The notes: generated by a model from the sequence alone, not told the origin. A DNA stretch of 64,000 bases from Methylomarinum vadi (GCF_000733935.1 NZ_JPON01000001.1:3482623-3546622), one strand, 5' to 3'; positions 6,911 through 63,038 are shown, counted from the first letter of the stretch. Numbers and translations are program-made.

Positions 6911-7140
6911 TTAGTTATCAGCAAGTGCGTAGCCCAGTCCCTTATAACCAGTCAGGCGTTTGTCTCTCATCCGGTTTAGCATGGGCACATCATCCGCATA
7001 GTCATAAATGAGGACTTCGGTTTTGGCATGATGTAGCCGGTGTAGCCTTCCGACGTACTGGGCTAATGTGCCTTTCCAGGATACCGGTAAGACTAATAAC
7101 AAAGTATCCAGGCGAGCGTCATCAAATCCTTCGCCCAAGT
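6911..7140 (-). pseudogene. 3' fragment (C-terminal ~75 aa, helicase motif VI region) of the IS-disrupted AEP-primase/SF2-helicase gene
   Basis: GEGFDDARLDTLLLVLPVSWKGTLAQYVGRLHRLHH continues the helicase ORF, which ends ...ATGRYL at the other IS junction. Joining across the IS restores GRYLGEGFD. Confidence 0.7.
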
Positions 7141-34455: not shown

Positions 34456-35106
34456 ATGAACGATAGTCTTGTGACAATATTGGGAAGTTCGTATTTTGAA
34501 CCAATTAGTGCATTGCTTGAAAAGCTGGAGAAACACGAGAGCAATATCTCTAACCAAGTTCAATCTGGCTATTACGAAAAAGGGTTTGCTGCATCGATCT
34601 GTATTCTGAGTGTGGTCTGCCTGGAGTCATACGTAATGAGAGTTAGGTATATTAATTCTGCCAACCAAGATCATATTGATAGAACGCCTGTTGTTAGTTA
34701 CTTAAAGTCACTATATCCAGATTTTCCGTTTGAAAACGAATTACTGGAATTACATATATTGAGAGACCTCCTGGCCCACAATCACCTATGGGAAATATCA
34801 TATTCATTTAACGAAGATGATGAAATGGAAATTAGTGAGGTAGAAAAAAGAAGTTCTGGTGATAAAAAATATCGGCAACGTGTAGATACGGAAAATCACG
34901 TAACAAAAACTCTAGGCCTGAACGTGAACCCAATTAAGGTAGGGGCTTCAGACGTTAAGTTGGTCCTTCAGACGATGTGGAAAATTCTACTTTTTCTTGA
35001 GAGCAAGAATAGAAATCAATGCTACGTATCTCATCTGCGCGCGGTATATAAGGGCACACTAAGGCAGTTTGGTGAAATCATTGGTATGCCAGAAACATGC
35101 ACATAA
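34456..35106 (+). CDS. Hypothetical protein (216 aa), AT-rich, partner of the preceding gene; its TAA stop coincides with the first bases of the IS91-family element
   Basis: ORF with an SD; no recognisable motif. Confidence 0.4.
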   Translation: MNDSLVTILGSSYFEPISALLEKLEKHESNISNQVQSGYYEKGFAASICILSVVCLESYVMRVRYINSANQDHIDRTPVVSYLKSLYPDFPFENELLELHILRDLLAHNHLWEISYSFNEDDEMEISEVEKRSSGDKKYRQRVDTENHVTKTLGLNVNPIKVGASDVKLVLQTMWKILLFLESKNRNQCYVSHLRAVYKGTLRQFGEIIGMPETCT

Positions 35107-35415
35107 CGAATAAGGTTAGATTGTAATCGCGGAGCGAGCCACAATCTGAACCGTTTGTTGGACAAGCCCGGTATTCGGAGGGAGCGTTATATAAGAAAAT
35201 AGCTTTTCGAAGGATTGGGGGATGTGTTGGCCCATTTCAAGCGTTGACGTCGATAAACGGGCTGAAATGGGCGTGATGCTGATCATCACACCCGGAATTT
35301 CGGATTTTAGCGGCATTTTGCCCTGAATTCAGACCGAACGAAAGCCTCGGTGCTAAAATGCCCGATGATCGGTTTGGGTCAGTGAGAAATGCCGCTTACA
35401 TAACCGGTTTTGCCT

Positions 35416-36513
35416 CTACGCTTTGGTCGAATTCAATGCCATGACAGCCGAAGAACCGAGAATGCGCGTTTTGATAATCTGCAGGGTTCCACCACAACAT
35501 GGGCATTGGAGTTTCGGGCGGGGCCTGAGCCAAGCGATAGCACGATTGGGATTGACGCCGAGCAAGACTTGCAGCAGACGAATCAGCCGTTTGCTGTTGG
35601 GGTGCAAAAAGCCGAAGTTGCGAGTCCGCCTAAAGCCTTTGGGCAGAACATGGCGGAGCATCAGCCACAGAAACTTCACGCCGGGTAGTGTTCGAGTCTG
35701 CCACTTTTTGGTTTTGCTGTCCTGGTAACGGAAGGTTACTTGGCCATCTCGGCAGGCAATAATGTCCTTTTCCTGGATAACGCCCTTATAGAGATAACGT
35801 CCCAGATAAACCAAGGCTTTATCGCCGCGTCCGACCGACTTGACGTCAACGACCCATTGTTGCGGATAGTAGTCAGGCAATGTCAAACCGGCCTGCGAGA
35901 TCGCTTCAAGCAATTTGGCCCGAAACACTTTGGCCACTGCCTTGTGATTGAACAAATAGCCTTTCCGGCCCTTTTTACCCTGTTTGGTGCGCCACAGTCG
36001 TTTATCAGGATCGATGGCGGCCGCCGGCATCACCAAGTGTACATGCGGATGGTAATCCAATCGGCGGGAATGGGTATGCAACACAGCAATAGCACCGGCA
36101 TTGCCCTGAAGCTGTTGATCGTTGCGGGTGAAGGTGTTGACGGTATCCCAACTACAGCGGATCAGCAGATCATACAACGTACGTTGCTGTTGCCAGGCCA
36201 ACGGCCTGAGTTCTTTGGGCAAAGTAAACGTCAGCAAAAAATATTCGGCCGGCACCTGCTTCTGCAACTGCCTTTCCAGCCATTGTTGCGATTCGTGCGA
36301 CTGGCAATGCGGGCAGCTGCGATGGCCGCAGGAATGCGGCACCAAGCGTTGCCGATCGCAATCATCGCATTGCGCCAACATCACAGGGCCTTGCGACGTG
36401 CGGCAGTGTTTCATCGCGGCCAGCGCCTGACGCTGACTGGGTGACAAGCGACCCTGGTAAGCGACCAGAAACTCGGCTTCGAAGGTTTGGATGATGGCGG
36501 AAAGCAAGATCAT
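35416..36513 (-). CDS. IS91-family HUH/Y2 transposase
   Basis: HUH motif [18 protein letters not shown]; Y2 motif YLGRYLYKG; N-terminal Cys/His zinc-binding cluster. Confidence 0.85.
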
Positions 36514-37417
36514 TTGACCGCCCCCCAGTCGATGTCGAAGCCATTCATTAAGGCATTAATCAACTGGCCGGTATTTTGATTCGTGCCGTCGGTCAGGTGA
36601 GTATAGCGGGCAGTGGTGAGGATACTGTGGTGACCGAGGATTTTCTGCACTTCCAGTAGATCGACGCCCGCTTCAATCAAATGTGTGGCATAGCTATGCC
36701 GCAGACAGTGCGGGGTAATCTTTTTTTTAAACCGCAGTCTTGCGCGACTTGGCGCAGAGCCTTTTGCACGCCACCGCGATCCAAAGGGCTCTGCGCGCGC
36801 TGCGCGCCCTTCAAACCGCCATGGCGATTGGGAAACAACATGACCGGATGCCGGTGAACTTGCCAGAAGCGGCGTAGCAAATCCAGGGTGGCAGCCGGCA
36901 ACGGCACCAGTCTATCCTTATTGCCCTTGGCATCTCGGATATGCACGCGTTGGCGACCGGCATCGATATCCCCAACCTCAAGACGCAATCCCTCGCCGAG
37001 GCGCAAACCTAGACTGTAGAGCGTGAAAAAGAACACCCGGTAACTGAGAATACGCGTGGACTGGAAGATACACCGCGCCTCGTCGACAGTGACGATATCC
37101 GGCAAACGTTGCGCCTTCGGCGGCTTGACCAACTGCGGCGCGACCCAAGGCTTGCGCAGTACATGGGTGTAATAAAACTTGAGACCGTACAGGTCCAACT
37201 TGACCGCACTCCAAGAATGCGACTCCAGCAAATCGGTGAAATAATCGGTCAGTTGCTGTTCGGTCAACGCATTGATGTCTTCGTTGAAATACTGGCCGAT
37301 ACGTCGAATCGCACGGGCATAGGCCTCGATCGTCTTGGGCTGCAACCCTTTAAGTTTGAGGTGTTTCAGATGGCTTTGATAGTTTTGCTTGAAATGGGGT
37401 TCGAATGATGTTGTCAT
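36510..37417 (-). CDS. Tyrosine recombinase (phage-integrase family) of the IS91-family element. Full length requires a -1 frameshift in an A8 run at ~36721-36728. The zero-frame product (36677..37417) stops 14 codons after the run.
   Basis: The -1 frame after the A-run reads [46 protein letters not shown], which are integrase box II and the catalytic Tyr. Its TGA overlaps the transposase ATG (ATGA). Confidence 0.65.
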
Positions 37418-37621
37418 TGTCGCGTAACCTCATGATTCGTCATGGAATAATCCCTCTTAAAAGAGGGCGTGAGATTACATTTTATAAATTACCGGCTACT
37501 GCCGCTTTTCTCCGCGTTAGCGGCTTCGTCCAACACGGCATTCCACCCGACCAAAAACCGCTACGCGGTTTTCCTCGGGTGAGCTTGGCGTTAGCTTTGA
37601 AATTACGAATTTGAGGCGTCA

Positions 37622-37963
37622 ATGAGCAGAAAAAAACACCGAAGCACACGCGCTGCCCGTAAAGGCCCAATTATGTCCGCGGAAATGAGTGCAAAAATCT
37701 TCGAGGCATTAAATGATCGTCGCTATGTCGCACGAACCATAAAAGGCATAGCAACATCAACACATTTGAGAGAGCCGCAGGTGGTGGAAGTGTTGCGTAA
37801 CGATCAGAATTTGCGCGGTGCGGTGAAGATTTACCCGCGTAAGTCGAAAAATGGCAAATTACTAATTACCACCAAAGAAAAATTTGAAAAAACCGCCACA
37901 ACACTCGATAGGTTTATCGATTATTTCGCTACGAAAAAGGAGAGTTTTGATGACTTCTCCTGA
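37622..37963 (+). CDS. Hypothetical small basic protein (possible winged-helix)
   Basis: ORF with a GAGG SD; AT-rich. Confidence 0.3.
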   Translation: MSRKKHRSTRAARKGPIMSAEMSAKIFEALNDRRYVARTIKGIATSTHLREPQVVEVLRNDQNLRGAVKIYPRKSKNGKLLITTKEKFEKTATTLDRFIDYFATKKESFDDFS

Positions 37964-38309
37964 TGGGGTTTCAATTACGCAACTAATTAGCTCGAATCAA
38001 CTTCTGATTTTTATCGCCTTTTTTGGTGGAGTAGTTCTTTTTGGAATGAAAATGGCCGAGCATTTTTCTCGGAAGCCAGAAAATAAATTCTCGAACGGTC
38101 GATATTTCTTGTACTTTGTCTTTTTGCTTGTCTCACTTCCAATACTTGGCTCGGCAGTTGTAATAATATACTTAGCAAACGGCGACAAAATAAGTCCTGT
38201 ATTGGCATTTCAAATAGGATTGACGTCACCTGCGATAGTCCAAAGCTTAATAATTGCCGCAGCAAACAAATTCAAAGAAGGTGGTCTAGAAACCACAAGT
38301 GGACAGTGA
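37950..38309 (+). CDS. Hypothetical small 3-TM membrane protein (start at MTSPDGV with an AAGGAG SD; overlaps the upstream gene by 14 nt)
   Basis: Hydrophobic helices; translational coupling. Confidence 0.3.
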   Translation: MTSPDGVSITQLISSNQLLIFIAFFGGVVLFGMKMAEHFSRKPENKFSNGRYFLYFVFLLVSLPILGSAVVIIYLANGDKISPVLAFQIGLTSPAIVQSLIIAAANKFKEGGLETTSGQ

Positions 38310-38385: not shown

Positions 38386-38688
38386 TTATGGCTCATTTAG
38401 GTGAGGTATCGCATCCATTCTTTTATGGAGAGCTCGAACAATTTCAATTTTGTTTTCTGAGAGAGTTCGGTAAAAAACGATGTGGCCAGTAACAGGAAGT
38501 TTTCGGTAGCCTATTTTTATGTAGTCACAAGCAATGCCAATATCTGGGGTATCAGCAAGCAAATGGAAAGCATCGTCAAATTGTTTCAAGTAAATTCGTC
38601 GTTGTTCTTTGCCCCATTTCCTTTGGGTGTATGCAGCAATGGACTTTAGGTCAGATTTGGCTTGGTTGGTAAGTTGAAATGTACCCAT
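38386..38688 (-). CDS. parE: ParE/RelE-family toxin
   Basis: ~100 aa; C-terminal RelE/ParE fold motifs; overlaps the upstream parD by 1 nt. Confidence 0.8.
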   Translation of the reverse strand: MGTFQLTNQAKSDLKSIAAYTQRKWGKEQRRIYLKQFDDAFHLLADTPDIGIACDYIKIGYRKLPVTGHIVFYRTLSENKIEIVRALHKRMDAIPHLNEP

Positions 38689-39251: not shown

Positions 39252-39743
39252 GTGAAAACCAACAAACCTAATCAAAATAACAAAGTTAAATCGAAGGGGT
39301 CTCGTCTTGACGCGTCCAACAAGAAAGTGTTGGTGGATTGCCAAATATCAACGCGACTCGAAGAAATCGAGACGCTGGCCGATACCGTCGACAACGTACT
39401 GACCGACAGCGATCTGGCGTTCTCCGTCAACTTGTGCCTGGAAGAATTGATTACCAACACAATCAATTACGGTCTAGGCGGTGCCTCGGACCGGTTAATT
39501 CACGTGCAAATAAACAGTACGGCGGAATGGTTGGAGATCGTTCTCGAAGACGACGCGCCTCAATTTGACCCGTTCGTACAAGTCCCGGAACCCAAGTTGG
39601 ACCAGGATATTAACGATCGCCCGATCGGCGGCCTCGGCGTGCACTTGGTTAAGAAAATTATGGACGATGTCCATGCCTATTATGACGGTACTGGAAATAT
39701 GATCGTGCTGCGTAAGCGCTTATCTCATCAAAATAAGGAATAA
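39252..39743 (+). CDS. RsbW-like anti-sigma factor / Ser-protein kinase (HATPase_c_2)
   Basis: LCLEELITNTINYG (N-box) ... GLGVHLVKKIMDDV (G2 box). Confidence 0.7.
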   Translation: MKTNKPNQNNKVKSKGSRLDASNKKVLVDCQISTRLEEIETLADTVDNVLTDSDLAFSVNLCLEELITNTINYGLGGASDRLIHVQINSTAEWLEIVLEDDAPQFDPFVQVPEPKLDQDINDRPIGGLGVHLVKKIMDDVHAYYDGTGNMIVLRKRLSHQNKE

Positions 39744-39762
39744 AGCGCAAAAAGACCGTGAA

Positions 39763-40098
39763 TTAGGTGAGTGTCGCCAGCGCTTCGGCGACGGAGTTTT
39801 CCATCTTGAACAGGGACGCGAAGCCTGACATCTCGAAGACCGAGCGGACGTTGCCGTTGACGTTGGCAAAGCAGACATTGCCGTTTTTCTCCTTCAGCAG
39901 CTTGGCCATCAACAGCAGAGCCCGAAGTCCAGCGCTGCTGATGTAATCGAGTTGTGCAAAGTCCACGACAAAGTCGTTAGTGCCGCCGGCAATCATTTCC
40001 CGGATTCTTTTTTCATACTCCGGGGCGGTTACCGCATCTAGCCTGCCACTGATCGTTACGATGGTGGCGTTATTTTCTATGGTGGTCTGCAAATCCAT
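39763..40098 (-). CDS. STAS-domain anti-sigma-factor antagonist (SpoIIAA/RsbV-like)
   Basis: 110 aa with a phosphorylatable Ser in DYISSAGLRALL. Confidence 0.8.
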   Translation of the reverse strand: MDLQTTIENNATIVTISGRLDAVTAPEYEKRIREMIAGGTNDFVVDFAQLDYISSAGLRALLLMAKLLKEKNGNVCFANVNGNVRSVFEMSGFASLFKMENSVAEALATLT

Positions 40099-40165
40099 GG
40101 ACGTTGTTCTTTATGCGTATTTACTATGAAAGTCGCGACGCGGGCCTTAATCCCCCTCGTCCTCT

Positions 40166-41910
40166 GGAGGGCGTCGTAAAACCCCAATTTCTTTGATTTA
40201 CCACTGGAAACCGGCCGTATTTTCCACGGTCGGCGAAGTTGGCAAGTCAGTAGTGTAACTCAGCCAAATGTCGACCATTCGGTCAAACGAGCTCATAAAC
40301 CGGCTAAGCCAATGATATAAAGCACGAAAAAGAGCTGCCACTAAGGCGCGGCTCAGATTGTAAGCCATGGCGTGCAAGGCGAACTCTACTTTGACACCCG
40401 CCAAACCTTTACGGCGAAAGCGATTCAAGCCTTGGCGACCGCGTAGCTGACTGAAGACTGGCTCCACCATGGCCTGCCGCTGCCGATAGCGTTGCCGAGG
40501 TTCGGGCTGGGCCATTTTCAGGCGCAGGGCTTCTTTTTGGGTATCGCTGTCATAGCGTTTGAGGGTGCGACCGCTTTCGCTACGCGTGCATTGGGATTTC
40601 AGCGGACAGTCTGAACAGGCATCGCAGGCGTAGACGGTATAAGCATGGCCACTTTTACCGCCTTTGCAGGTGTGACGGCGAGTCAAGCGTTGTTGCCCCG
40701 GACAGCGATAAGTGTCGTCGTCGGCCTGATAAATAAAGCGGCTTTTGGGGATTTGTTTGTTGGATTGTTTGTTCCAATCGTCTCCTTCACTTTGGCCTTC
40801 CGGACAAAGCAATTCGATGTTGTGTTGCTCAGCAGTATCCAAGACGCCATTGCTGAAATAGCCAGCATCGAACAGAGCTGTTTCGACGCCTCCCAGGGCT
40901 TGGGCGCGATCCAGTAAGCCCGGCACCACCTCGGTTTCACTGGAAGGATGAACGTCGCAAGCCACGATCACTCGATTGTCGTTCGCCAATACCGACGGTT
41001 TATAACTGCTGCGAAAGTCTTTGGAGTTCTTTTGCGGCTGTAATACCGCCTCCGGCTCGTTGCTTTGTACTTGGGTCTTGGCCGGATCTTTGCCTTTGGC
41101 GGCTTGTTTTTGCTGGCGAGACTTTAGCTCGGCTTGGGCTTGTTCCAGACCGTTCATACGCTTAGTCGCAGCCGCATCGTTTGGGTTGGCTTGCGCGGCT
41201 TCCTTCGCTTGCGCCAAGGCTTGGTTGAGCGCTTCTTCCTTCATCAATCGAAACCGGGAGGACATGGCTTCGATCACGGTACCGTCACCCGCCAACGCCG
41301 TCGTGCCGGAGCCGGTGACTTTCAAAGTACGACGCGTTAGTTGATCGAAAAATTCGGTCGTCAATGAGTCGGCATGCTGATGGACGAAACGGCCAATGAC
41401 GGAGTGATCCGGCATGATACCGCCACTTAGCCACCAACACCCCACATCGGCTCGAGCTAAACGCTCCAAGTCGCGCAGGCTGCTGATGCCTTGTAACAGG
41501 CCGTAGAGAATGATCCCCACCATCGCACATGGCGCATACGGCGGACGCCCGCCGGGCCGATAACGGGCTTCGAACTCGGCGAAGGATAGCGATTGCAAGA
41601 AGGGGCGCAATTTCAACGGGATGGTTAAGCCGGCGTGCTCCAGATGTTCGCCGAGCGGTTTACCGTTGATCGATAAGCCGCGCGGGTCGGGCGCTTCAAA
41701 ACGGGCCATCGGTTCGCTTGAGATCGATTGAGCGATCAACTCAGGTAACGGTTCAACCTCGCATTCATCGAATAGCGAATATTGCTTGGCGCTATACAAT
41801 GTCTTGACGGGTCTAATGTTCGCTTCGGCTGCCATTGATCTATTTCTAATAGGTTTGGACAGGGTTATTTTACCGTATGTAGCTGGTTGGGGGGCTTTTA
41901 CGACAGCCTC
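40166..41910 (-). mobile_element. IS1182-family insertion sequence, copy 2, 1745 bp, 4-bp TSD CTCT, inverted relative to copy 1
   Basis: Same TIRs as copy 1; ctct on both flanks; inserted between the STAS gene and the ABC ATPase gene. Confidence 0.8.
40198..41835 (-). CDS. IS1182-family DDE transposase (copy 2). It has scattered substitutions relative to copy 1, so the copies are not identical.
   Basis: 545-aa protein collinear with 7216..8853; differences include MARFEAPD vs MAHFEAPD and PCAMVG vs PRAMVG. Confidence 0.85.
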   Translation of the reverse strand: MAAEANIRPVKTLYSAKQYSLFDECEVEPLPELIAQSISSEPMARFEAPDPRGLSINGKPLGEHLEHAGLTIPLKLRPFLQSLSFAEFEARYRPGGRPPYAPCAMVGIILYGLLQGISSLRDLERLARADVGCWWLSGGIMPDHSVIGRFVHQHADSLTTEFFDQLTRRTLKVTGSGTTALAGDGTVIEAMSSRFRLMKEEALNQALAQAKEAAQANPNDAAATKRMNGLEQAQAELKSRQQKQAAKGKDPAKTQVQSNEPEAVLQPQKNSKDFRSSYKPSVLANDNRVIVACDVHPSSETEVVPGLLDRAQALGGVETALFDAGYFSNGVLDTAEQHNIELLCPEGQSEGDDWNKQSNKQIPKSRFIYQADDDTYRCPGQQRLTRRHTCKGGKSGHAYTVYACDACSDCPLKSQCTRSESGRTLKRYDSDTQKEALRLKMAQPEPRQRYRQRQAMVEPVFSQLRGRQGLNRFRRKGLAGVKVEFALHAMAYNLSRALVAALFRALYHWLSRFMSSFDRMVDIWLSYTTDLPTSPTVENTAGFQW

Positions 41911-41956
41911 CTCTGGGAGAGGGCCGGGGAGAGGGAACGATCAAGCGCCATGATCG

Positions 41957-43045
41957 TTAGGCCTTAAGCAGCAATTGTAATCGGTTTTTGCCGTCGATCC
42001 ACCGATATTCGATGCTTTCGGTCAAATTCTTAATAATCATCAAGCCCAGGTCATCGCTTATACTCGGACTTTCGAGCGGATTGCCTTCCTCTCCGTTACT
42101 TTCGCAGATGATTTCGAGGCGTTCGTTCTTTTCCGAATAGGCGATGGTCATATCCAGAACGATCGTGCGCAGATAAGGGTTATAGATTTGCAGTAATTCC
42201 TCGACCAATAGCAGCAAATTGTATCGGGTTTTCTTGGGCAGGATCTGCTTTTCACAAAAGGCCTCGATTTCCGCATTCATCGCATACAAATCGTAATCTG
42301 GAGAATTGATGCGGCAGGTGTAGCTGCGCACCCGGTTGATGAAAGCCCGGGTCTTTTCCTTGAGCGGATTCTCGAAAAGCTGTTCCGGGGGCCCCTCTTC
42401 GTAGATGATCCCCTCGTCCATATACAATATTCGGTTCGATACATCGCGGGCGAAATCCATTTCATGGGTGACGATCGCCATCGTCATGCCTTCCTTGGCG
42501 AGGCGGCGGATGACCGAGAGCACCTCCCTGACCATGGTCGGGTCCAGCGCCGACGTCGGCTCGTCGAACAGAATGATTTCCGGGTCCATGGCGAGACAAC
42601 GAGCAATGGCCACGCGTTGTTGCTGGCCGCCGGAAAGTTCATCCGGATAACTGCCGGCCTTTTCCGCCAGCCCCACCAAACGCAACAATTCAAGCGCCTT
42701 GATCTTGGCGTTTTGCTCGCCGATGCCTTTAAGCCTGATCGGTGCGATGGTGAGGTTTTCCAGCACCGACAGGTGGGAAAACAGATTGAATGATTGAAAT
42801 ACCATGTTCATCTTTTGGCGTATTTCGGCGACATTGGTCTTCTTATCCAGAATATCCACGCCGTTTATTCGGATAGAGCCGCCGCTCGGAAGTTCGAGCA
42901 GGTTCAGGCAGCGCAGCAGGGTGCTCTTGCCGGTGCCGGAAGGTCCGATGATCGAGACGACTTCCCCGGTTTTTATTTCGGTGGTAATGTCCTTCAGCAC
43001 GACCAGGTCGCCGAATTTCTTGGACAGATGGTCGATTTTGATCAT
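41957..43045 (-). CDS. Polar amino-acid ABC transporter ATP-binding protein (GlnQ-like) with a ~110-aa C-terminal RsbW-like (degenerate HATPase_c_2) extension
   Basis: Walker A GPSGTGKST, signature LSGGQQQR, Walker B ILFDEPTSALD. The C-terminal segment (LLLLVEELLQIY...RLEIICESNGEEGNP...DLGLMIIKNLTESIEYR) aligns with the RsbW N- and G-boxes. Confidence 0.75.
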   Translation of the reverse strand: MIKIDHLSKKFGDLVVLKDITTEIKTGEVVSIIGPSGTGKSTLLRCLNLLELPSGGSIRINGVDILDKKTNVAEIRQKMNMVFQSFNLFSHLSVLENLTIAPIRLKGIGEQNAKIKALELLRLVGLAEKAGSYPDELSGGQQQRVAIARCLAMDPEIILFDEPTSALDPTMVREVLSVIRRLAKEGMTMAIVTHEMDFARDVSNRILYMDEGIIYEEGPPEQLFENPLKEKTRAFINRVRSYTCRINSPDYDLYAMNAEIEAFCEKQILPKKTRYNLLLLVEELLQIYNPYLRTIVLDMTIAYSEKNERLEIICESNGEEGNPLESPSISDDLGLMIIKNLTESIEYRWIDGKNRLQLLLKA

Positions 43046-46026
43046 GACTGGGCTCCTTTACGCCGTTTGTATTTCGGATCGGTAATTCGTTCCAGGTATT
43101 CCAATGACAGCATCAGCACCCAGGCGATCACGAAGTACAGAATCGCCACCATGATCAACGGAAAAAAGGCGTCGAAGGTGCGGGCGCGGATGATATCGCT
43201 GGCCTTGGTCAAATCCTGCACCGCGATGTAGCCGACGATAGACGTCATCTTGACCAAGGAAATGAATTCGCCCTTGTACACCGGCAAGATGCGCTGCACG
43301 GCCTGCGGCAGCACGATGAAGATAAAGGTTTGTAGCTTCGTGAAGCCCATCGCGATACCGGCTTCGGTCTGGCCCTTGTCGATGCTTTCGATGCCGGTGC
43401 GGAACATTTCCGAAACATAGGCGCCGAAATTCAGGCCGAAGGCGATGATGGCGACCAGCACCGGACTGATATTGACCGACGCGAACACGACATAGAAGAT
43501 CAGCATCAACAGCACCAGTACCGGCATGCCGCGCAGGAGGTTGATATAGATTTTGGCGGGCAAGTTCAAAACCGGGCGTTTCGACATCCTCATGAAACAG
43601 ACCAAGGCGCCGGTCAGCGTCCCGAACAGCGTCGCAAAGATCGAAATGACGACGGTGGTCTTCAGTCCGTCCCAGATCAATAAGTAGCGTTGCTCATGGA
43701 TGATGTTGCTGTAAAAACTGTTGGCGATGCGGGTAAGGAAGGATGAGGATGCCGTCGTGCTATCGGATGGGCTGTCGTAGGCCGCCAGATTTTTTTTCAA
43801 CGCGAAGACGCTGGCCTTCAATTCGAAGTAAGGCTCGGAAAAATCGATCCGGGTCTTGCGTTCGTCGGTGATCATCAGCGTGCTGTCGATCATGTCGATC
43901 TTGCCGGCTGAGACGGCGGCGATCAGGTTGCCGAATTCCATGTCGGCGTATTTGACTTTTTTACCGATATAGGCTCCGAAGCGCTCGGCCAATTCGATAT
44001 CGAAACCGATCAGTTCGTTGTTTTGAATGACGGCGAAAGGCAGTCCCTTATCGCTGACGATGCCGACTATCAGCACGCCATTGCTACCCGCATTGGCGAT
44101 CTCGGGCATTATGCTGTTACCTTGTTCGATCCAGCGATCCACGACATCATTCAACACGCCGTTCGCTTGAATTTGTTTCAGGAAGGCGTTGAATTGTTCG
44201 CGCAAGACGTCGTTGTTTTGGTTGAAACCCATGCCGACCGGAATGGACAGCACCGGCTCGCCCAATAAGGCTAATTCCTGGTCTTCGCGCAAGATCTGAA
44301 TCAAGTTCGCCCGGTTGTAAATGCCGGCATCGATCTTACCGGATCGGACCGCCAATACCAGGTCGGACGGCGATTTGTACTGCAGAATCTGGGCGTTCGG
44401 ATAATGTTCGGTCGCATAGGTATCATAGACCGACCCCAGCAGCACACCGATACGCTTGTCGCTTAAATCGGCGACCGTCATGAGTTTGTCGGTGACGACG
44501 TTTTTCTTCAGCGCGAAAACCCGCGTGCCCATCTTGAAGTAGGGATTGGAGAAGTCGATCTGTTTCTTTCTTTCCTCGGTGACATAGATAGAGCTGATAA
44601 TGATGTCGGCCTTGCTGGTGGACACCGCGGCGATCAAGCTGCCGAAATCCATATTATCGAATTTGATTTTTTTGCCGAGATAGGCCGCGAATCGCTCCGA
44701 CAATTCGATATCGAAGCCCACCCATTGGTTGTCTCGAAGCGCGACAAAAGGCATCCCCGCGTCACTGACGCCGACGACCAGAACGCCGTTGTTTTGGCTG
44801 TTTGCGATGACGGGCAATTGGATATCGCGTCTTTCCATCCAACGCCGCAGCATGTCGGCGTAGATGCCGTTTTGCTTGATTTGCGCCAGAAATTCATTGA
44901 AACGATTCCTGAGCTGTTGATTATCTTTCTTGAAACCGGCGGCTACATCGAAGTCGAATAGAGAGCCGCCCAACAGCGCGAAACTATCGTCATCACGCAT
45001 GATTTCGCGTAGCGGTTCGGCATCGTACAAAGCGACGTCTACCTTGCCGGTCTTGACCGCCAACGCGACATCCGCCGGCGACTTGTATTGCAGAATCGTC
45101 GCATCGGGGTAGTGTTTCGTCGCATAGGTGTCGTGCGCCGAACCCAGCAGCACGCCGATGCGCTTGTTTTCCAGGTCCGCGACCGAGGAAAGTTTTAGCG
45201 TTTGCATGATCAGTTTTTCCGGGTCGCCGGCGGAGCCGGTCGAGGGCGCTCGTTTAACCAGCATCACCTGCGCATTGGCGTAATACGGCTGGGTAAAATC
45301 GACGAATTGACTGCGTTCCTTGGTCGCCGTCATGCCGGTGACGATGATATCGACCTTGCCGGATTGCAGGGCGGGGATCAGCGCCATGAATTTCATGTTG
45401 TAAAATTCGACCGGCCGGTGAAGTTTGGCGCCGATAATTCGGGCGAACTCGCCGTCATGACCGCTGACCCTGCCGTTTTTGTCGACAAAACTGAACGGTT
45501 CCCGTGTCGCGCTGACCCCTATTTTGAGCGGCGTCCCCTCACTCGGGAGGGTGATGTTCAATTCTTCATAAGGGCTTAAATCCGGTTTGAACCAACGCTT
45601 TTTCATCGAGGCCAGGGTGCCGTCATTTTTCAGTTCGGTGATGATCCGGTTCAATGTCGCGAGCAACTCGTCATTGCCTTTTCTGACAGCGATCGCGGTA
45701 TTTTCGTGGTCGAGTGGTTCGGACAGCACGGTGAATTCCGGGTTCTTTTTCGACACCTGAAGCGCGGCGGGAAATGCCGTGACGATGGCATCCAATTGGC
45801 CGGATTTCAGCGCGGCGACGGCGTCCATGATATCGTCGAAACTTTTGACCTGAGCCTGTGGAAACCTGGCGAGCGTGATGGCTTCACCGGTCGACCCGGT
45901 CATGACCCCGATGCTTGCCTGTTTGGCATCATCGAGACGGGTGATGACGATGTCGTTTTTTCTGCAGCCGCTGACAAACGCAACGGTTGCCAGCAAGAAC
46001 AGCAAGATGGGTATTGCCTTTTTCAT
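43042..46026 (-). CDS. Fusion of three tandem periplasmic amino-acid-binding domains (SBP_bac_3) with a C-terminal ABC permease (GlnP-like SBD-SBD-SBD-TMD), lipoprotein signal
   Basis: 994 aa with three repeated ~230-aa SBD units and a C-terminal EAA-loop permease. The N-terminus LLATVAFVSGC is a lipobox. Overlaps the ATPase gene by 4 nt. Confidence 0.8.
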   Translation of the reverse strand: MKKAIPILLFLLATVAFVSGCRKNDIVITRLDDAKQASIGVMTGSTGEAITLARFPQAQVKSFDDIMDAVAALKSGQLDAIVTAFPAALQVSKKNPEFTVLSEPLDHENTAIAVRKGNDELLATLNRIITELKNDGTLASMKKRWFKPDLSPYEELNITLPSEGTPLKIGVSATREPFSFVDKNGRVSGHDGEFARIIGAKLHRPVEFYNMKFMALIPALQSGKVDIIVTGMTATKERSQFVDFTQPYYANAQVMLVKRAPSTGSAGDPEKLIMQTLKLSSVADLENKRIGVLLGSAHDTYATKHYPDATILQYKSPADVALAVKTGKVDVALYDAEPLREIMRDDDSFALLGGSLFDFDVAAGFKKDNQQLRNRFNEFLAQIKQNGIYADMLRRWMERRDIQLPVIANSQNNGVLVVGVSDAGMPFVALRDNQWVGFDIELSERFAAYLGKKIKFDNMDFGSLIAAVSTSKADIIISSIYVTEERKKQIDFSNPYFKMGTRVFALKKNVVTDKLMTVADLSDKRIGVLLGSVYDTYATEHYPNAQILQYKSPSDLVLAVRSGKIDAGIYNRANLIQILREDQELALLGEPVLSIPVGMGFNQNNDVLREQFNAFLKQIQANGVLNDVVDRWIEQGNSIMPEIANAGSNGVLIVGIVSDKGLPFAVIQNNELIGFDIELAERFGAYIGKKVKYADMEFGNLIAAVSAGKIDMIDSTLMITDERKTRIDFSEPYFELKASVFALKKNLAAYDSPSDSTTASSSFLTRIANSFYSNIIHEQRYLLIWDGLKTTVVISIFATLFGTLTGALVCFMRMSKRPVLNLPAKIYINLLRGMPVLVLLMLIFYVVFASVNISPVLVAIIAFGLNFGAYVSEMFRTGIESIDKGQTEAGIAMGFTKLQTFIFIVLPQAVQRILPVYKGEFISLVKMTSIVGYIAVQDLTKASDIIRARTFDAFFPLIMVAILYFVIAWVLMLSLEYLERITDPKYKRRKGAQS

Positions 46027-47744
46027 CTTTTCTCCTTGCCCATAGTGGCCGGCCGTTTCTTAGACATTTTTAGCGCCAACATCGTGATGTCGTCCGACTG
46101 GGAAGCCCCGTCGGCATGACGCGCCACTTCCAAACCGATGTTATGGACCATGTTCGTCACGTTTGTATCAGGGGCGGATTGCAACGCAGTCAGCAAGCGC
46201 TGTTCGCCAAAAAGTTCTTCCGATGGATTTTTTGCCTCGGTCACGCCATCGGTATAGAGAAACAGGATGCCTTCCTGTTCCAATTGGAGGTGCTCGGTCA
46301 CGAAGACGGTATCGTCCATCGCCCCCAGCATCAAGCCCGGCTTCGGCTTCAGGTATCGCGCGCGCCGCGAATCGATAATCAGCGGCGGGTTATGGCCGGC
46401 ATTTGAGAAGCGAACGTGTCCGCTGGTTATGTCGAGGATAGCGCAGAATACCGTCGTGAACATGCAGCTTTCGTTGTCCGCCGCGAGTATGGTGTTGACG
46501 GAAGAGAGGATCTTGGCCGGCTCCTTCAGCCGCTGGCCTTCGGTCTTCAGCAGGGTTTTTGCCACCATCATATACAAGGCCGCGGGAACGCCCTTGTCGG
46601 AAACGTCGGCAATCAGGAAGCAGAGATTGTTCTCGTCGATGAAAAAGAAGTCGTAGAAATCGCCGCCGACTTCTTTGGCGGGAACCATCGATGCGTAGAT
46701 TTCAAATTCGGGATGTTCGGGGAAGGGCGGAAAGATGCGAGGCAGCAGGCTTGCCTGAATATCGGTCGCGACCTTGAGCTCGCTCTGAATGCGTTCCTTC
46801 GCCGCGGTAGTTTCGGTCAGATTTTTGATGTACTCCTTCAAAGACTGTTCCATGACCTGGAAATCGTGGGTCAAAACGCTCACTTCGTCGTTCGTTTGCG
46901 GCATTGGCAAGGCCACGTCGAAGTTTCCTGTCGCGATTTCATCGGTCGCCGCAGTCAATCTTTGCAATGGTTTGATGATCGCCTTGGCAATGGAAATGAC
47001 CGCCAGAATTAGCAGTAAGATGCCGACGCCCCCCATCGTCGCCATGGTCATGCTCATTTTGCGGACATTTTCCAGTAGTTCTGTTTCGGGAAAGACGACG
47101 GCCAACGACCAGCCGGTAGAAGGGATCGGCGTGTAATACATCCAGCCGTTGATGCCGACCAAGCTGGTGTAATGGACGAAACCGGATTCGCCCCTGACCA
47201 TTTTCTTGCCGAGTTCCCGCAGCGAAGGGTCGTGGCGTTCCTCCGCAATGCTGAAAAAAGTTTCGTTCATGATGGCCTCCTGCAACGGGTGGGCCAGCAC
47301 CATGCCGTTGCGGGAAAACAGGGCCGCATAACCGGTCCTAAGGATTTTGACCGAGCTGATGTATTCGGTCAGAGCTTCGAGAGAAATGTCCGCGGTCACA
47401 ATACCCTGAAGTCGCTTTTCGCCATCGCCGTGCTTATAAAACGGCACCGAACAGGTCGACATCAGAATGTTGCCGGCGCCTTCGTCGAAATAGGGTTCGC
47501 TCCATTCGAGTTCGCCCAGCTCACGCGGAATTTGATACCAGTCCCAATACAGGTAAGGCAAGTGCTGGTAGGAAACTTCCAACCGTTCAAAGGCAATTAT
47601 CCCGTTCTTCCGGTAATAATAGGGCGCATAGAGACGCTCATCGGAGCTGAAGGCATAGGGCTCGAAGGCGACGGCCGAGCCGTATATCTCGGGATTGTCT
47701 GCGACGGTGGTTTCGATCAGAGACAGAAGCTGTCGTTCCTTCAA
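46023..47744 (-). CDS. Sensor Ser/Thr phosphatase: double-Cache-like periplasmic domain + TM + HAMP + PP2C/SpoIIE (RsbU-like)
   Basis: PP2C motifs GGDFYDFF, LIADVSDKGVPAALYM, TDGVTEA; a HAMP coil after the TM helix. Confidence 0.8.
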   Translation of the reverse strand: MKERQLLSLIETTVADNPEIYGSAVAFEPYAFSSDERLYAPYYYRKNGIIAFERLEVSYQHLPYLYWDWYQIPRELGELEWSEPYFDEGAGNILMSTCSVPFYKHGDGEKRLQGIVTADISLEALTEYISSVKILRTGYAALFSRNGMVLAHPLQEAIMNETFFSIAEERHDPSLRELGKKMVRGESGFVHYTSLVGINGWMYYTPIPSTGWSLAVVFPETELLENVRKMSMTMATMGGVGILLLILAVISIAKAIIKPLQRLTAATDEIATGNFDVALPMPQTNDEVSVLTHDFQVMEQSLKEYIKNLTETTAAKERIQSELKVATDIQASLLPRIFPPFPEHPEFEIYASMVPAKEVGGDFYDFFFIDENNLCFLIADVSDKGVPAALYMMVAKTLLKTEGQRLKEPAKILSSVNTILAADNESCMFTTVFCAILDITSGHVRFSNAGHNPPLIIDSRRARYLKPKPGLMLGAMDDTVFVTEHLQLEQEGILFLYTDGVTEAKNPSEELFGEQRLLTALQSAPDTNVTNMVHNIGLEVARHADGASQSDDITMLALKMSKKRPATMGKEKR

Positions 47745-47995
47745 GTTGACGATTTCAAGGGAACGCGCGACGTTTGAGGCACCTTGGCAACCGCCGTCAG
47801 CAGAGTCTCTATCCGATAGACTATCGACATGGCGAGGTTGCGCGCATTGCTTTCCAGTTCGTTTTGCAAAAGGGAACGCGACTGGTAATAGTTATAGCCG
47901 AGCGTCACAGAAAAAATCACGCTGCTGAACAGCGTGATGACCAGAACGAGCCGGACGACAATGCTACTTTTCCTCGCCATCGGCTCTCCAGGCAA
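47741..47995 (-). other. 84-aa ORF encoding a TM helix plus the start of a periplasmic domain. It overlaps the phosphatase gene start by ATGA and is probably the N-terminal segment of the same sensor, either frameshifted or genuinely split.
   Basis: A hydrophobic helix VVRLVLVITLFSSVIFSV is followed by Cache-like sequence. The phosphatase ORF lacks an N-terminal TM of its own. Confidence 0.35.
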
Positions 47996-48992
47996 AGTCG
48001 TTGTAATCCGGATAGTCGTCGATTAGACCCTGTTCTTGCATGGTCCGGCCTACGGCCACGTAATCCTGCTCCCGCAATTCGCCGAGTTTAGTCTGTGTGT
48101 CGGCGGGCATCATCAGGTCCCGCATCCGTTCCAGCATCCATCGCTGGTGAACACGGTTGGCGGGTAAATGAGCCTCATGCATGTAGTTGATGACGATATC
48201 CAGCGCTTCGTCGGGGTGAGCGAAGGCGTAGCGCCAGCCTTGCAACGAGGCTTCGACGAATGCCGCCGCCAGCTCCGGGTCGTGGGAAACGGTGTTTTGC
48301 AGCGCGTAGATGCCGTCTTCCAGAAGATTCATGCCCCGGTCTCTGAGGAAAAAGACGTTTAATTCCTCGGGATCGATGCCGGAATTGATAATCGTATGGT
48401 ACTCGTTGAACCACATCGCGGATGTCACGTCGATGCCTCCGCGCAGAAACAGATTGACGGTATGCGACTGACGCACCGCGTGAATCTTGATGTGGTGTCT
48501 GGCGAACAAGGCGCGAGGCGGAATGGAGACGTCTCCTTCCCATAAGCCTACCTTTTTGCCGTCCATGTCGGCAATGGTGTCGATTCCGGATGTCTTTTTC
48601 GCAATCAGCAGCATCGACGAGCGCTGATTGGTTTGAGCCAGGTTGACAAGCGGAATCCCGGCGGCACGATGCCGCAGGGCGGAAGTCAACCACAAAATGG
48701 CAAAGTCGGCGGCGCCTTTCTTCAGCGCGTCGACGGGAGAATGGCCGGGACCGGCCCGGAGAATCGTTAAATCGATGCCGTGCTTGGCATAGAGGCCTTT
48801 GTCGAACGCCACGTAATAGCCGGCGAACTGCGCCTGCGGCTCCCACAGCGGCATCAGGGTGGCTTTTTTGAGTGGACGCTCGGTCGAATAAATCGGTAGC
48901 GCAATAACCCACCATAGCAACAAACACATCACGGCGGTGAGTGAATATTTTCTTAATGGAGGGTGGCACTTAGGTGACATCGTATTCATCAC
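47964..48992 (-). CDS. Periplasmic NMT1/SsuA-like (nitrate/sulfonate/bicarbonate-type) substrate-binding-fold protein
   Basis: Signal/TM helix followed by the SsuA/THI5-like fold motif GYYVAFDKGLYAKHGIDL. Confidence 0.6.
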   Translation of the reverse strand: MMNTMSPKCHPPLRKYSLTAVMCLLLWWVIALPIYSTERPLKKATLMPLWEPQAQFAGYYVAFDKGLYAKHGIDLTILRAGPGHSPVDALKKGAADFAILWLTSALRHRAAGIPLVNLAQTNQRSSMLLIAKKTSGIDTIADMDGKKVGLWEGDVSIPPRALFARHHIKIHAVRQSHTVNLFLRGGIDVTSAMWFNEYHTIINSGIDPEELNVFFLRDRGMNLLEDGIYALQNTVSHDPELAAAFVEASLQGWRYAFAHPDEALDIVINYMHEAHLPANRVHQRWMLERMRDLMMPADTQTKLGELREQDYVAVGRTMQEQGLIDDYPDYNDFAWRADGEEK

Positions 48993-59595: not shown

Positions 59596-59951
59596 CGTTA
59601 TCCGGCGGATGAACGTGTATCATCGGGATAATTGAGTCCTAACGAATAAGGTTAGATTGTAATCGCGGAGCGAGCCACAATCTGAACCGTTTGTTGGACA
59701 AGCCCGGTATTCGGAGGGAGCGTTATATAAGAAAATAGCTTTTCGAAGGATTGGGGGATGTGTTGGCCCATTTCAAGCGTTGACGTCGATAAACGGGCTG
59801 AAATGGGCGTGATGCTGATCATCACACCCGGAATTTCGGATTTTAGCGGCATTTTGCCCTGAATTCAGACCGAACGAAAGCCTCGGTGCTAAAATGCCCG
59901 ATGATCGGTTTGGGTCAGTGAGAAATGCCGCTTACATAACCGGTTTTGCCT

Positions 59952-61049
59952 CTACGCTTTGGTCGAATTCAATGCCATGACAGCCGAAGAACCGAGAATG
60001 CGCGTTTTGATAATCTGCAGGGTTCCACCACAACATGGGCATTGGAGTTTCGGGCGGGGCCTGAGCCAAGCGATAGCACGATTGGGATTGACGCCGAGCA
60101 AGACTTGCAGCAGACGAATCAGCCGTTTGCTGTTGGGGTGCAAAAAGCCGAAGTTGCGAGTCCGCCTAAAGCCTTTGGGCAGAACATGGCGGAGCATCAG
60201 CCACAGAAACTTCACGCCGGGTAGTGTTCGAGTCTGCCACTTTTTGGTTTTGCTGTCCTGGTAACGGAAGGTTACTTGGCCATCTCGGCAGGCAATAATG
60301 TCCTTTTCCTGGATAACGCCCTTATAGAGATAACGTCCCAGATAAACCAAGGCTTTATCGCCGCGTCCGACCGACTTGACGTCAACGACCCATTGTTGCG
60401 GATAGTAGTCAGGCAATGTCAAACCGGCCTGCGAGATCGCTTCAAGCAATTTGGCCCGAAACACTTTGGCCACTGCCTTGTGATTGAACAAATAGCCTTT
60501 CCGGCCCTTTTTACCCTGTTTGGTGCGCCACAGTCGTTTATCAGGATCGATGGCGGCCGCCGGCATCACCAAGTGTACATGCGGATGGTAATCCAATCGG
60601 CGGGAATGGGTATGCAACACAGCAATAGCACCGGCATTGCCCTGAAGCTGTTGATCGTTGCGGGTGAAGGTGTTGACGGTATCCCAACTACAGCGGATCA
60701 GCAGATCATACAACGTACGTTGCTGTTGCCAGGCCAACGGCCTGAGTTCTTTGGGCAAAGTAAACGTCAGCAAAAAATATTCGGCCGGCACCTGCTTCTG
60801 CAACTGCCTTTCCAGCCATTGTTGCGATTCGTGCGACTGGCAATGCGGGCAGCTGCGATGGCCGCAGGAATGCGGCACCAAGCGTTGCCGATCGCAATCA
60901 TCGCATTGCGCCAACATCACAGGGCCTTGCGACGTGCGGCAGTGTTTCATCGCGGCCAGCGCCTGACGCTGACTGGGTGACAAGCGACCCTGGTAAGCGA
61001 CCAGAAACTCGGCTTCGAAGGTTTGGATGATGGCGGAAAGCAAGATCAT
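59952..61049 (-). CDS. IS91-family HUH/Y2 transposase (copy 2)
   Basis: Identical to 35416..36513. Confidence 0.85.
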
Positions 61050-61953
61050 TTGACCGCCCCCCAGTCGATGTCGAAGCCATTCATTAAGGCATTAATCAAC
61101 TGGCCGGTATTTTGATTCGTGCCGTCGGTCAGGTGAGTATAGCGGGCAGTGGTGAGGATACTGTGGTGACCGAGGATTTTCTGCACTTCCAGTAGATCGA
61201 CGCCCGCTTCAATCAAATGTGTGGCATAGCTATGCCGCAGACAGTGCGGGGTAATCTTTTTTTTAAACCGCAGTCTTGCGCGACTTGGCGCAGAGCCTTT
61301 TGCACGCCACCGCGATCCAAAGGGCTCTGCGCGCGCTGCGCGCCCTTCAAACCGCCATGGCGATTGGGAAACAACATGACCGGATGCCGGTGAACTTGCC
61401 AGAAGCGGCGTAGCAAATCCAGGGTGGCAGCCGGCAACGGCACCAGTCTATCCTTATTGCCCTTGGCATCTCGGATATGCACGCGTTGGCGACCGGCATC
61501 GATATCCCCAACCTCAAGACGCAATCCCTCGCCGAGGCGCAAACCTAGACTGTAGAGCGTGAAAAAGAACACCCGGTAACTGAGAATACGCGTGGACTGG
61601 AAGATACACCGCGCCTCGTCGACAGTGACGATATCCGGCAAACGTTGCGCCTTCGGCGGCTTGACCAACTGCGGCGCGACCCAAGGCTTGCGCAGTACAT
61701 GGGTGTAATAAAACTTGAGACCGTACAGGTCCAACTTGACCGCACTCCAAGAATGCGACTCCAGCAAATCGGTGAAATAATCGGTCAGTTGCTGTTCGGT
61801 CAACGCATTGATGTCTTCGTTGAAATACTGGCCGATACGTCGAATCGCACGGGCATAGGCCTCGATCGTCTTGGGCTGCAACCCTTTAAGTTTGAGGTGT
61901 TTCAGATGGCTTTGATAGTTTTGCTTGAAATGGGGTTCGAATGATGTTGTCAT
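61046..61953 (-). CDS. Tyrosine recombinase of IS91-family element copy 2 (same A8 frameshift site at ~61257-61264)
   Basis: Identical to copy 1. Confidence 0.65.
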
Positions 61954-62069
61954 TGTCGCGTAACCTCATGATTCGTCATGGAATAATCCCTCTTAAAAGA
62001 GGGCGTGAGATTACATTTTATAAATTACCGGCTACTGCCGCTTTTCTCCGCGTTAGCGGCTTCGTCCAA

Positions 62070-63038
62070 CTATTCGTTCTCGTCCTCGTCGGATACCTTG
62101 ATCACGATATTGACGCGGCGGTTTTTTTGCCGGCCTTGTTCGCTGGCGTTGTCGGCCACCGGTTTGGTATCGGCATAGGTGACCGCTCGCATGCGCGCGG
62201 CGTCGATTTGCTGCGAGGCCAGAAAATGCAGCACGCTGGTGGCCCTGGCCGCCCCCAGTTCCCAATTGGAGGGAAATTGGGCCGTCTTTATCGGACGGTT
62301 ATCGGTATGCCCCTCTATATAAATCAATCCCTTAGCTTGTTTCAGCAGCGGAGTCAATTTGCTCAAGACGGCGCGGCCCGATTCGGTCAGGGCTGCTTCC
62401 GATGATTGGTAGAGAATATTGTCTTGTATTTCCAGTTGGGCGTAACCCTGAGTGACGGTCATGTTGATGCTGTTGTTCAGCCCTAACTGTTCCAGCTGTT
62501 GTTGCAATTGCTGTTGGCTTGCTTGTTCAGGCGGGGGCTCTGTCGGTTGCATTTGTTCGACGGATTCCGTTACTTCCTGACTCGGTAGCGCCCGTTCCTC
62601 GGTGACTGCGGGTTCTTCTACCGGTTCGACAACGGATGGCGCTACCTCTATGGCTGCGTTTTCTGCCGGCTCGACGGGAATCGGTGCAACGGGTTCGATT
62701 TCGGCGGTGGAATCTTCGGTTTCCGGCGCAGCCGTTTCGGACTCGGGCGCGGCTGGTTCGACTGGCGCTTGCTCGGGCGTTGTTTCCCTTTCGGCCTTTG
62801 CGGAGGCGGCCGCCTCGGGAGGGGCGGGGGCAGTCACGGTCGCAAGGGCGTCGCGTGCCTGACTCGGGACCGGCTCGAAACTGCTCAGGGCAACCAGCGT
62901 GACCACCAGCATCACGACCAAGACGAAGACATCGATATAGGTCAGCAACCAATTCGGTGGATGGCGTCTGTCGCTCAGGCTAAGCAATTCGTCGATGCTC
63001 TGCGATGATTCGAGGCGGGAAAAGGATGGCCGGGGCAT
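62070..63038 (-). CDS. MotB/OmpA-family peptidoglycan-anchoring protein with a long acidic Pro/Ala/Glu-rich linker
   Basis: N-terminal TM; C-terminal OmpA-like IEGHTDNRPI...NWELGAARA; its stop codon abuts the IS91 boundary. Confidence 0.75.
   Translation of the reverse strand: MPRPSFSRLESSQSIDELLSLSDRRHPPNWLLTYIDVFVLVVMLVVTLVALSSFEPVPSQARDALATVTAPAPPEAAASAKAERETTPEQAPVEPAAPESETAAPETEDSTAEIEPVAPIPVEPAENAAIEVAPSVVEPVEEPAVTEERALPSQEVTESVEQMQPTEPPPEQASQQQLQQQLEQLGLNNSINMTVTQGYAQLEIQDNILYQSSEAALTESGRAVLSKLTPLLKQAKGLIYIEGHTDNRPIKTAQFPSNWELGAARATSVLHFLASQQIDAARMRAVTYADTKPVADNASEQGRQKNRRVNIVIKVSDEDENE

Follow-up and report, generated by a model that had tools for sequence, protein, structure and literature searches.

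In the present study a stretch of 64,000 nucleotides from Methylomarinum vadi (GCF_000733935.1, NZ_JPON01000001.1:3482623-3546622), which as a whole is called the window below, was analyzed with regard to an ATP-binding cassette (ABC) importer locus at positions 39,252 to 48,992. The ATPase of this importer bears an additional C-terminal domain (residues 238-362), which on the evidence of its modelled structure is a true homologue of the serine kinases RsbW and SpoIIAB with a Bergerat (GHKL) fold, and which lies next to the genes of a partner switch. We propose that the locus represents a conserved, self-contained six-gene module, in which a serine-phosphorylation switch would act directly on an amino-acid ABC importer and not on a sigma factor, the unphosphorylated STAS protein docking on the catalytically dead kinase-like domain and thereby gating transport; this reading we regard as evenly poised.

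Genes were called from a listing of open reading frames (ORFs) and from Pfam and NCBIfam scans of the window, and the ATPase is 100% identical to a Methylomarinum vadi protein. The genes and domains of the module are the following:

47964-48992, minus strand: NMT1/SsuA-type periplasmic binding protein with N-terminal signal anchor (Pfam NMT1 134.6 bits; SsuA_fam E-value 2e-15)
46023-47995, minus strand: Cache-HAMP-PP2C membrane phosphatase (Pfam MCP-like_PDC_1, dCache_1, HAMP, and SpoIIE with 168.7 bits)
43042-46026, minus strand: lipoprotein with an array of substrate-binding domains (SBDs) and a permease (lipobox VSGC; SBP_bac_3 338 bits in 4 stretches; BPD_transp_1 75.8 bits; HEQRo_perm_3TM)
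41957-43045, minus strand: whole ATPase gene, 362 residues
42335-43045, minus strand: nucleotide-binding domain of the ATPase, residues 1-237, of GlnQ/ArtP/HisP type (ABC_tran 122.9 bits over residues 17-165; GlnQ model 302.6 bits)
41957-42334, minus strand: fused RsbW-like GHKL domain of the ATPase, residues 238-362, a predicted dead pseudokinase and the proposed docking site of the STAS protein
39763-40098, minus strand: single-domain STAS protein of the anti-sigma-antagonist type, phospho-acceptor motif DYISSAGL (STAS 78.6 bits; TIGR00377 80.7 bits)
39252-39743, plus strand: free RsbW-type serine kinase, convergent with the STAS gene (HATPase_c_2 79.8 bits)

The C-terminal domain of the ATPase

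With the 125-residue tail of the ATPase as query, a phmmer search of 1.8 billion representatives returned 165 proteins at E-values up to 0.001, most of which were the tails of GlnQ-like ATPases of 360-373 residues, and canonical free RsbW-like proteins were reached with the tail alone at E-values of 2e-5 to 2.5e-4. Few new sequences were gained from a further protein search with a profile of the tail. A hidden Markov model (HMM) of the kinases co-located with these transporters matched the ATPases at E-values of 1e-6 to 1e-3, and when a 30-member alignment of the tail was compared with the co-located kinase family in hhalign, a probability of 98% was obtained (E-value 2e-13, 111 aligned columns), as against 0.15% in the control comparison with STAS.

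The AlphaFold2 model of the tail has a predicted local distance difference test score (pLDDT) of 94.2. The top 22 PDB matches of this model in Foldseek are all partner-switch kinases, namely RsbW, SpoIIAB, UsfX, SiaB and the RsbW domain of Rv1364c, with template modelling (TM) scores of 0.55-0.74 and E-values of 5e-6 to 6e-3; the structure of SiaB with SiaC (6KKO) is among the Foldseek matches. Histidine-kinase catalytic domains rank next, and the model matches GHKL proteins only. It was solely the comparison of folds that revealed this relationship to solved structures, since a sequence-profile search of the PDB with the tail gave nothing meaningful (best E-value 1.3). The model of the full-length ATPase has ArtP as its best PDB match (58% identity, TM score 0.96 over 238 residues) and matches solved ABC ATPases over the nucleotide-binding domain only, the root mean square deviation from MetN/MalK-type proteins rising to 9-10 Å when the tails are included; hence, no solved transporter carries an RsbW-like tail. 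That the tail is a TOBE, CBS, ACT or NIL domain was ruled out by the fold matches and by its poor alignment to MetN and MalK. The original prediction, made from the DNA sequence, had described the ATPase C-terminus as RsbW-like, and the profile comparisons, the model and its 22 best fold matches bear this out, the tail being none of the common ABC regulatory domains (TOBE, CBS or ACT).

The motifs on which catalysis depends in this family have been lost from the tail and kept in the free kinase. At the position of the N-box asparagine, whose loss had been rightly suspected, I, L, V, M or Q stands in the tails of all 30 diverse members, and asparagine in none, while the two glutamates of the N-box are invariant in all 30 (invariant residues D252, E282 and E283). 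Furthermore, the tail has no conserved G1 aspartate, the GGxG motif is replaced by D-D/E-L-G/S/A, and the lid is shorter by about 10 residues. Because the N-box asparagine, the G1 aspartate and the glycine-rich lid are absent, the tail is, as far as its motifs can tell, a catalytically dead pseudokinase, and since no member has these motifs, it was rejected as a second active kinase. Of the free kinases, 38/38 have both the glutamate and the asparagine of the N-box, 36/38 the G1 aspartate and 37/38 GGxG.

Most strongly conserved in the tail are the EE pair of the N-box helix, YSEK, NP and DxLG, which, when aligned with the kinase boxes, fall into the N-box, G1 and G2 regions around what was once the ATP pocket. 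It is in this pocket that SpoIIAB and RsbW receive the phospho-acceptor loop of their STAS partner (structures such as 1TH8 and 6M36). The STAS protein of the locus scores above the TIGR00377 cut-off (80.7 versus 53.45 bits), and its loop DYISSAGL is conserved to at least 95% at each position among 52 co-located homologues.

Conservation of the gene linkage

Relatives were collected by scanning one genome per GTDB species with the tail (8-sequence alignment), which yielded 239 relatives, and 80 loci were kept. Downstream genes were counted in the 76 loci with at least 1.5 kb of downstream sequence, and two-sided counts were made in the 56 loci with both flanks. The loci originate from Methylococcaceae, Nitrosomonas, Nitrotoga, Chlorobiaceae, Geobacteraceae and Desulfuromonadales, Desulfobacteraceae, Burkholderiales and Rhodocyclus, as well as from Sphingomonadales, Acidobacteriota, Bacteroidota, Rhodothermales, Victivallales, Planctomycetota and Gemmatimonadota.

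A STAS gene follows directly downstream of the ATPase gene in 42 of the 76 loci, with gaps of -28 to +116 nucleotides, and is found anywhere in the locus in 49, a free kinase gene in 36. The PP2C gene is present in 36 of the 56 loci with both flanks, STAS, kinase and PP2C genes together in 27, and an NMT1 gene upstream of the PP2C gene in 26. When all other ORFs in the 80 neighbourhoods were clustered, neither a further conserved gene family nor a sigma factor was detected, and the dead kinase-like domain of the ATPase is the only conserved candidate partner of the STAS protein besides the free kinase. In M. vadi, too, no sigma factor gene was found among the neighbouring ORFs scanned from 35.4 to 55.5 kb of the window, as had been stated in the original prediction.

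The kinase gene follows the STAS gene in 30 of 43 ATPase-STAS pairs, in 14 co-directional and in 16 convergent with it. No kinase gene adjoins STAS in the other 13 (L010, L015, L022, L025, L064, L065, L071, L072, L083 and others), most of which have a PP2C gene upstream, so that the linkage of STAS is closer with the ATPase than with the kinase; the kinase of these pairs must be encoded elsewhere or be dispensable. In Methylomarinum vadi's relatives M. roseum and Methylobacter marinus the gene order is the same as here without the insertion sequence (IS) that is described below, and in M. marinus only 12 nucleotides separate the ATPase stop from the STAS start. Synteny in relatives had been put forward as a check on the proposed coupling, the absence of STAS and RsbW genes there as counter-evidence; both genes have been retained.

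A more remote, Bacteroidota-like variant (P0095 loci, L085-L087), whose tail is 28% identical, unites the same six functions in another gene order: kinase and STAS genes precede an unfused permease, the ATPase and a binding protein, and both the NMT1 protein and the Cache-HAMP-PP2C phosphatase are present. Next in these loci comes the gene of a CarboxypepD_reg/OMP beta-barrel outer-membrane protein, a hint that an uptake route across the entire envelope is encoded here.

Among the distant members of the ATPase family, one has a STAS gene 1.7 kb upstream. The locus of a distant member (L090, 13708-14742) holds a second STAS gene followed by a 5TM-5TMR_LYT-SpoIIE-HATPase_c_2 fusion, and thus another switch architecture near this kind of ATPase.

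Proposed mechanism and alternative explanations

In the mechanism we propose, the input would be provided by the periplasmic NMT1-type binding protein and the Cache-HAMP-PP2C membrane phosphatase, the switch by the STAS protein with its invariant phospho-acceptor serine and the catalytically intact RsbW-type kinase, and the receiver would be the dead RsbW-like domain at the C-terminus of the importer ATPase. The unphosphorylated STAS protein would dock over the vestigial active-site pocket of the dead domain, as SpoIIAA does on SpoIIAB, and docking would alter the closure of, or ATP hydrolysis by, the two nucleotide-binding domains, so that uptake is gated. Phosphorylation of the STAS serine by the free kinase would release the STAS protein, which the PP2C phosphatase would reset when its periplasmic sensor is occupied. 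The docking of STAS on the dead domain, whether it promotes or inhibits transport, and which ligand is involved are matters of inference.

Several observations weigh against this proposal. The HMM scan of the tail, by which the RsbW-like reading was to be checked, did return a HATPase_c_2 match over almost the full profile (ATPase residues 253-358, profile positions 8-125 of 127 in Pfam, E-value 0.0018), but its 18.7 bits lie below the gathering threshold of 27.4 bits; some homologues of the ATPase have a precomputed PF13581 match. The short lid removes part of the surface with which SpoIIAB contacts SpoIIAA, and docking cannot therefore be identical. In 15 of the 56 loci with both flanks, this type of ATPase occurs without STAS, kinase or PP2C genes within 8 kb, and switch genes are likewise missing from the vicinity of the distant members P0131 and P0119. 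Moreover, the tail is equally conserved in loci with and without switch genes, and a comparison of the tails of these two groups, in which STAS-contact residues were sought, yielded nothing discriminating. The tail may accordingly serve a purpose for which no STAS protein encoded in the same locus is required. Alternatively, one switch may serve several transporters: Rhodocyclus purpureus (L074, 1463-14009) has two transporters with the dead kinase tail and one set of NMT1, PP2C, kinase and STAS genes, and in one metagenome-assembled genome of the Desulfobacteraceae one locus has switch genes and another does not (L021, L026).

Three other explanations were considered. The first is partner switching of the classical kind in which the ATPase replaces the sigma factor: the free kinase would bind the dead domain via the GHKL dimer interface or the sigma-binding surface and would be pulled off by unphosphorylated STAS. 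This follows the canonical logic of RsbW/RsbV and SpoIIAB/SpoIIAA, the homology of the dead domain and the kinase over their whole length would permit them to pair in the manner of the SpoIIAB or RsbW homodimer, and the kinase adjoins STAS in the 30 of 43 loci mentioned above. However, the 13 ATPase-STAS pairs without a kinase nearby do not fit, it is the STAS gene and not the kinase gene that is translationally close to the ATPase, and the kinase gene is found in either orientation (16 convergent, 14 co-directional), so that we consider this explanation unlikely.

Secondly, the transporter could be the sensor rather than the target, with the dead domain capturing and releasing STAS according to transport cycle or substrate load, while the output would lie with something encoded elsewhere, for instance a sigma factor or an enzyme, that partners the free kinase or STAS. 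ABC transporters acting as co-sensors are well known, as in MalK-MalT and BceAB, the locus encodes two periplasmic sensing parts besides the binding domains of the transporter itself, and the kinase, whose motifs are intact, would retain a free surface for another partner. Yet the 80 neighbourhoods contain no conserved candidate for an output gene, the Cache-PP2C protein is already a dedicated sensor, and transporters with this domain also occur without switch genes nearby, all of which makes a sensory role of the transporter distinctly improbable in our view.

Least of all do we expect the tail to be a mere dimerisation domain or a domain for trans-inhibition by a small ligand on a GHKL scaffold (compare MetN C2 and MalK/ModC), with the switch genes as co-expressed neighbours acting elsewhere, for although the tail shows the same conservation pattern in loci without switch genes, its conserved residues line a pocket that could hold a small molecule, and C-terminal regulatory domains are frequent on importer ATPases (PMC10710835), this would leave unexplained why STAS directly follows this ATPase in 42 of 76 loci across phyla, why the tail shares its ancestry with the protein that STAS naturally binds, and why the same gene set recurs in rearranged order.

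Sensor proteins and transporter

The original prediction had listed the genes of the locus, and all of them are present where it placed them; the RsbW-like kinase gene, however, does not simply follow STAS on the same strand, but lies on the plus strand and converges with it. Its true start codon is probably located downstream of the GTG at 39252, and the homologue in M. roseum is called at 143 residues.

The phosphatase consists of a transmembrane segment, a double Cache domain, a second transmembrane segment, HAMP and PP2C (SpoIIE), and its best NCBIfam match is SiaA, which is weak (84.5 bits versus a cut-off of 700 bits). Thus, the Cache-HAMP-PP2C composition that had been predicted was recovered, but it had been overlooked that the M. 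vadi gene is split by a deletion of 1 nucleotide at about 47777-47782, relative to M. roseum and Methylobacter marinus, into ORFs of 84 residues (47741-47995) and 573 residues (46023-47744). With one base added, an ORF of 657 residues results that is 89% identical over the full 652 residues of the intact M. roseum protein; in relatives the protein is intact with 652-654 residues. The frameshift may reflect a real pseudogene or an error of assembly. The NMT1 protein is likely a co-sensor, as its gene and the beginning of the gene for the sensor phosphatase overlap; an NMT1 gene is present also in the rearranged loci L085-L087.

With its nucleotide-binding domain, HEQRo-type permease and SBP_bac_3 domains the transporter has the components of a polar-amino-acid importer. 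Its substrate cannot be assigned, since the ATPase scores 302.6 bits with the GlnQ equivalog, below the cut-off of 379 bits. In the lipoprotein three SBD equivalents are fused to the permease, as had been predicted, and the gene contains an internal repeat of 711 nucleotides. The units do not, however, seem to follow the canonical GlnP type that had been assumed for them: read from the sequence, their order is lobe 2 / lobe 1-lobe 2 / lobe 1-lobe 2 / lobe 1, and they appear to be circularly permuted. In relatives with a single SBD the lipobox is followed by lobe 2 with a C-terminal helix, a linker, lobe 1 and then the membrane domain (L026 5788-7293, L040 5788-7293, L054 5761-7293), and the relatives of the protein range from about 500 to 1270 residues, corresponding to roughly 1 to 4 units.

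Insertion sequences and state of the M. vadi copy

The following element is inserted in M. vadi between the gene of the ATPase and that of STAS:

40165-41923, minus strand: IS1182-like element with transposase at 40198-41835 (DDE_Tnp_1_6, DDE_Tnp_1, DUF772)

The pair of DDE_Tnp_1_6 and DUF772 domains is what we take to mark the IS1182 family. The element is an inverted copy of window positions 7128-8886 (97% complementary), its inverted repeats begin with GGAGG, and the flank AGA(G) is duplicated, the target-site duplication being readable as 3 to 5 bp. It sits in a palindromic spacer, which measures 129 bp in M. roseum, where the empty site is visible (L001 11089-11219), and is absent in Methylobacter (12 bp). 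The position between the two genes and the duplication CTCT given in the original prediction agree with this, as AGAG reads CTCT on the plus strand, and its suggestion that the insertion may have uncoupled STAS fits the empty site in M. roseum. A scan for promoters and terminators around the element found no more sites than in shuffled sequence. In M. roseum a different insertion, of the IS66 family, splits the SBD-permease gene (L001 6820-8475). Because the insertion parts STAS from the operon and the PP2C gene is frameshifted, the M. vadi copy of the switch is probably impaired, unless the frameshift is an assembly error.

In the further surroundings, a gene of a ParE-family toxin (38386-38688) lies just past the kinase gene, and two small ORFs at 37622-38309 had no Pfam match. 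A segment of 22 kb that holds the entire locus is flanked by identical direct copies of 2431 bp (35104-37534 and 59640-62070), which code for an IS91-type Y2 transposase and a tyrosine integrase; the paired copies could mobilise or delete the segment.

Comparison with known systems

The RsbU-RsbV-RsbW and SpoIIE-SpoIIAA-SpoIIAB systems share with the present locus a PP2C phosphatase, a STAS protein with a phospho-serine loop and a GHKL serine kinase of the HATPase_c_2 type, and the tail of the ATPase has the RsbW/SpoIIAB fold. The present locus differs in having no linked sigma factor, in bearing the kinase fold a second time, catalytically dead, as part of an ABC ATPase, and in its phosphatase, which sits in the membrane, senses the periplasm and is accompanied by a binding protein. 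SiaABCD of Pseudomonas aeruginosa comprises a HAMP-PP2C phosphatase, an RsbW-like kinase and a small STAS-like phosphoprotein, the unphosphorylated form of which binds an enzyme directly. It resembles the module in this combination of proteins and in having a non-sigma output, as is proposed for the module; its output is, however, a diguanylate cyclase and not a transporter, and it has no pseudokinase receiver domain.

As in the Mla system, the gene of a small STAS protein lies beside that of an ABC ATPase. MlaB binds the nucleotide-binding domain of MlaF and is needed for ATPase activity, and a phosphomimetic residue at the equivalent threonine of MlaB weakens the binding (PMC7367683). In contrast to the proposed docking on a tail, MlaB contacts the nucleotide-binding domain itself, MlaF has a short C-terminal tail and no GHKL domain, and MlaB has no known kinase or phosphatase; Mla is, moreover, a lipid transporter with MCE components, whereas here a BPD_transp_1 permease with fused SBP_bac_3 domains and no MCE protein is found. 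MlaF-MlaB and SiaABCD are the closest precedents.

With GlnPQ, ArtPQ and HisQMP the importer shares the nucleotide-binding domain (58% identical to ArtP), the HEQRo-type permease and, as in GlnP, SBP_bac_3 domains fused in tandem; it differs by the extra GHKL-like domain of 125 residues and by three SBD equivalents that the sequence suggests to be circularly permuted. The C2 domain of MetN, the corresponding domains of MalK and ModC, the TOBE domain of CysA and the CBS domains of OpuA occupy the same position right after the nucleotide-binding domain, and a dimeric regulatory module at this site can hold both nucleotide-binding domains apart or together (PMC10710835). They differ in fold, as the tail here matches GHKL proteins only.

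The original prediction did not recognise the fusion of ATPase and RsbW-like domain as a described architecture, and in keeping with this our literature searches, which most subscription journals lay outside of, brought up no description of it, nor does a review of STAS-only proteins contain one; a review of transporter regulation from 2023 has no mention of control by STAS, anti-sigma factors or partner switching. An earlier mention elsewhere cannot be ruled out, given this reach of the searches.

Biological significance

Partner switching is understood mainly as a control of sigma factors, with few non-sigma outputs known, and the post-translational control of ABC importers is understood for only a handful of regulatory domains. 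It is proposed, with slightly less than even confidence, that the module stands for an undescribed and widespread class of partner switching, whose output would be the direct post-translational gating of an ABC importer and whose receiver would be a pseudokinase copy of its own kinase; the NMT1 protein and the Cache-PP2C phosphatase would decide via the phosphorylation of STAS, and one switch may serve several paralogous transporters. If true, the module would link both fields by a phospho-switch with a receiver in the form of a pseudokinase domain built into the transporter, and it would plainly exemplify the reuse of a kinase fold for docking. It would also give a function to the unannotated tail of 125 residues on hundreds of entries named 'amino acid ABC transporter ATP-binding protein'. 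As the module has been kept in methanotrophs, nitrifiers, green sulfur bacteria, relatives of Geobacter and Bacteroidota, the proposal is testable in culturable organisms.

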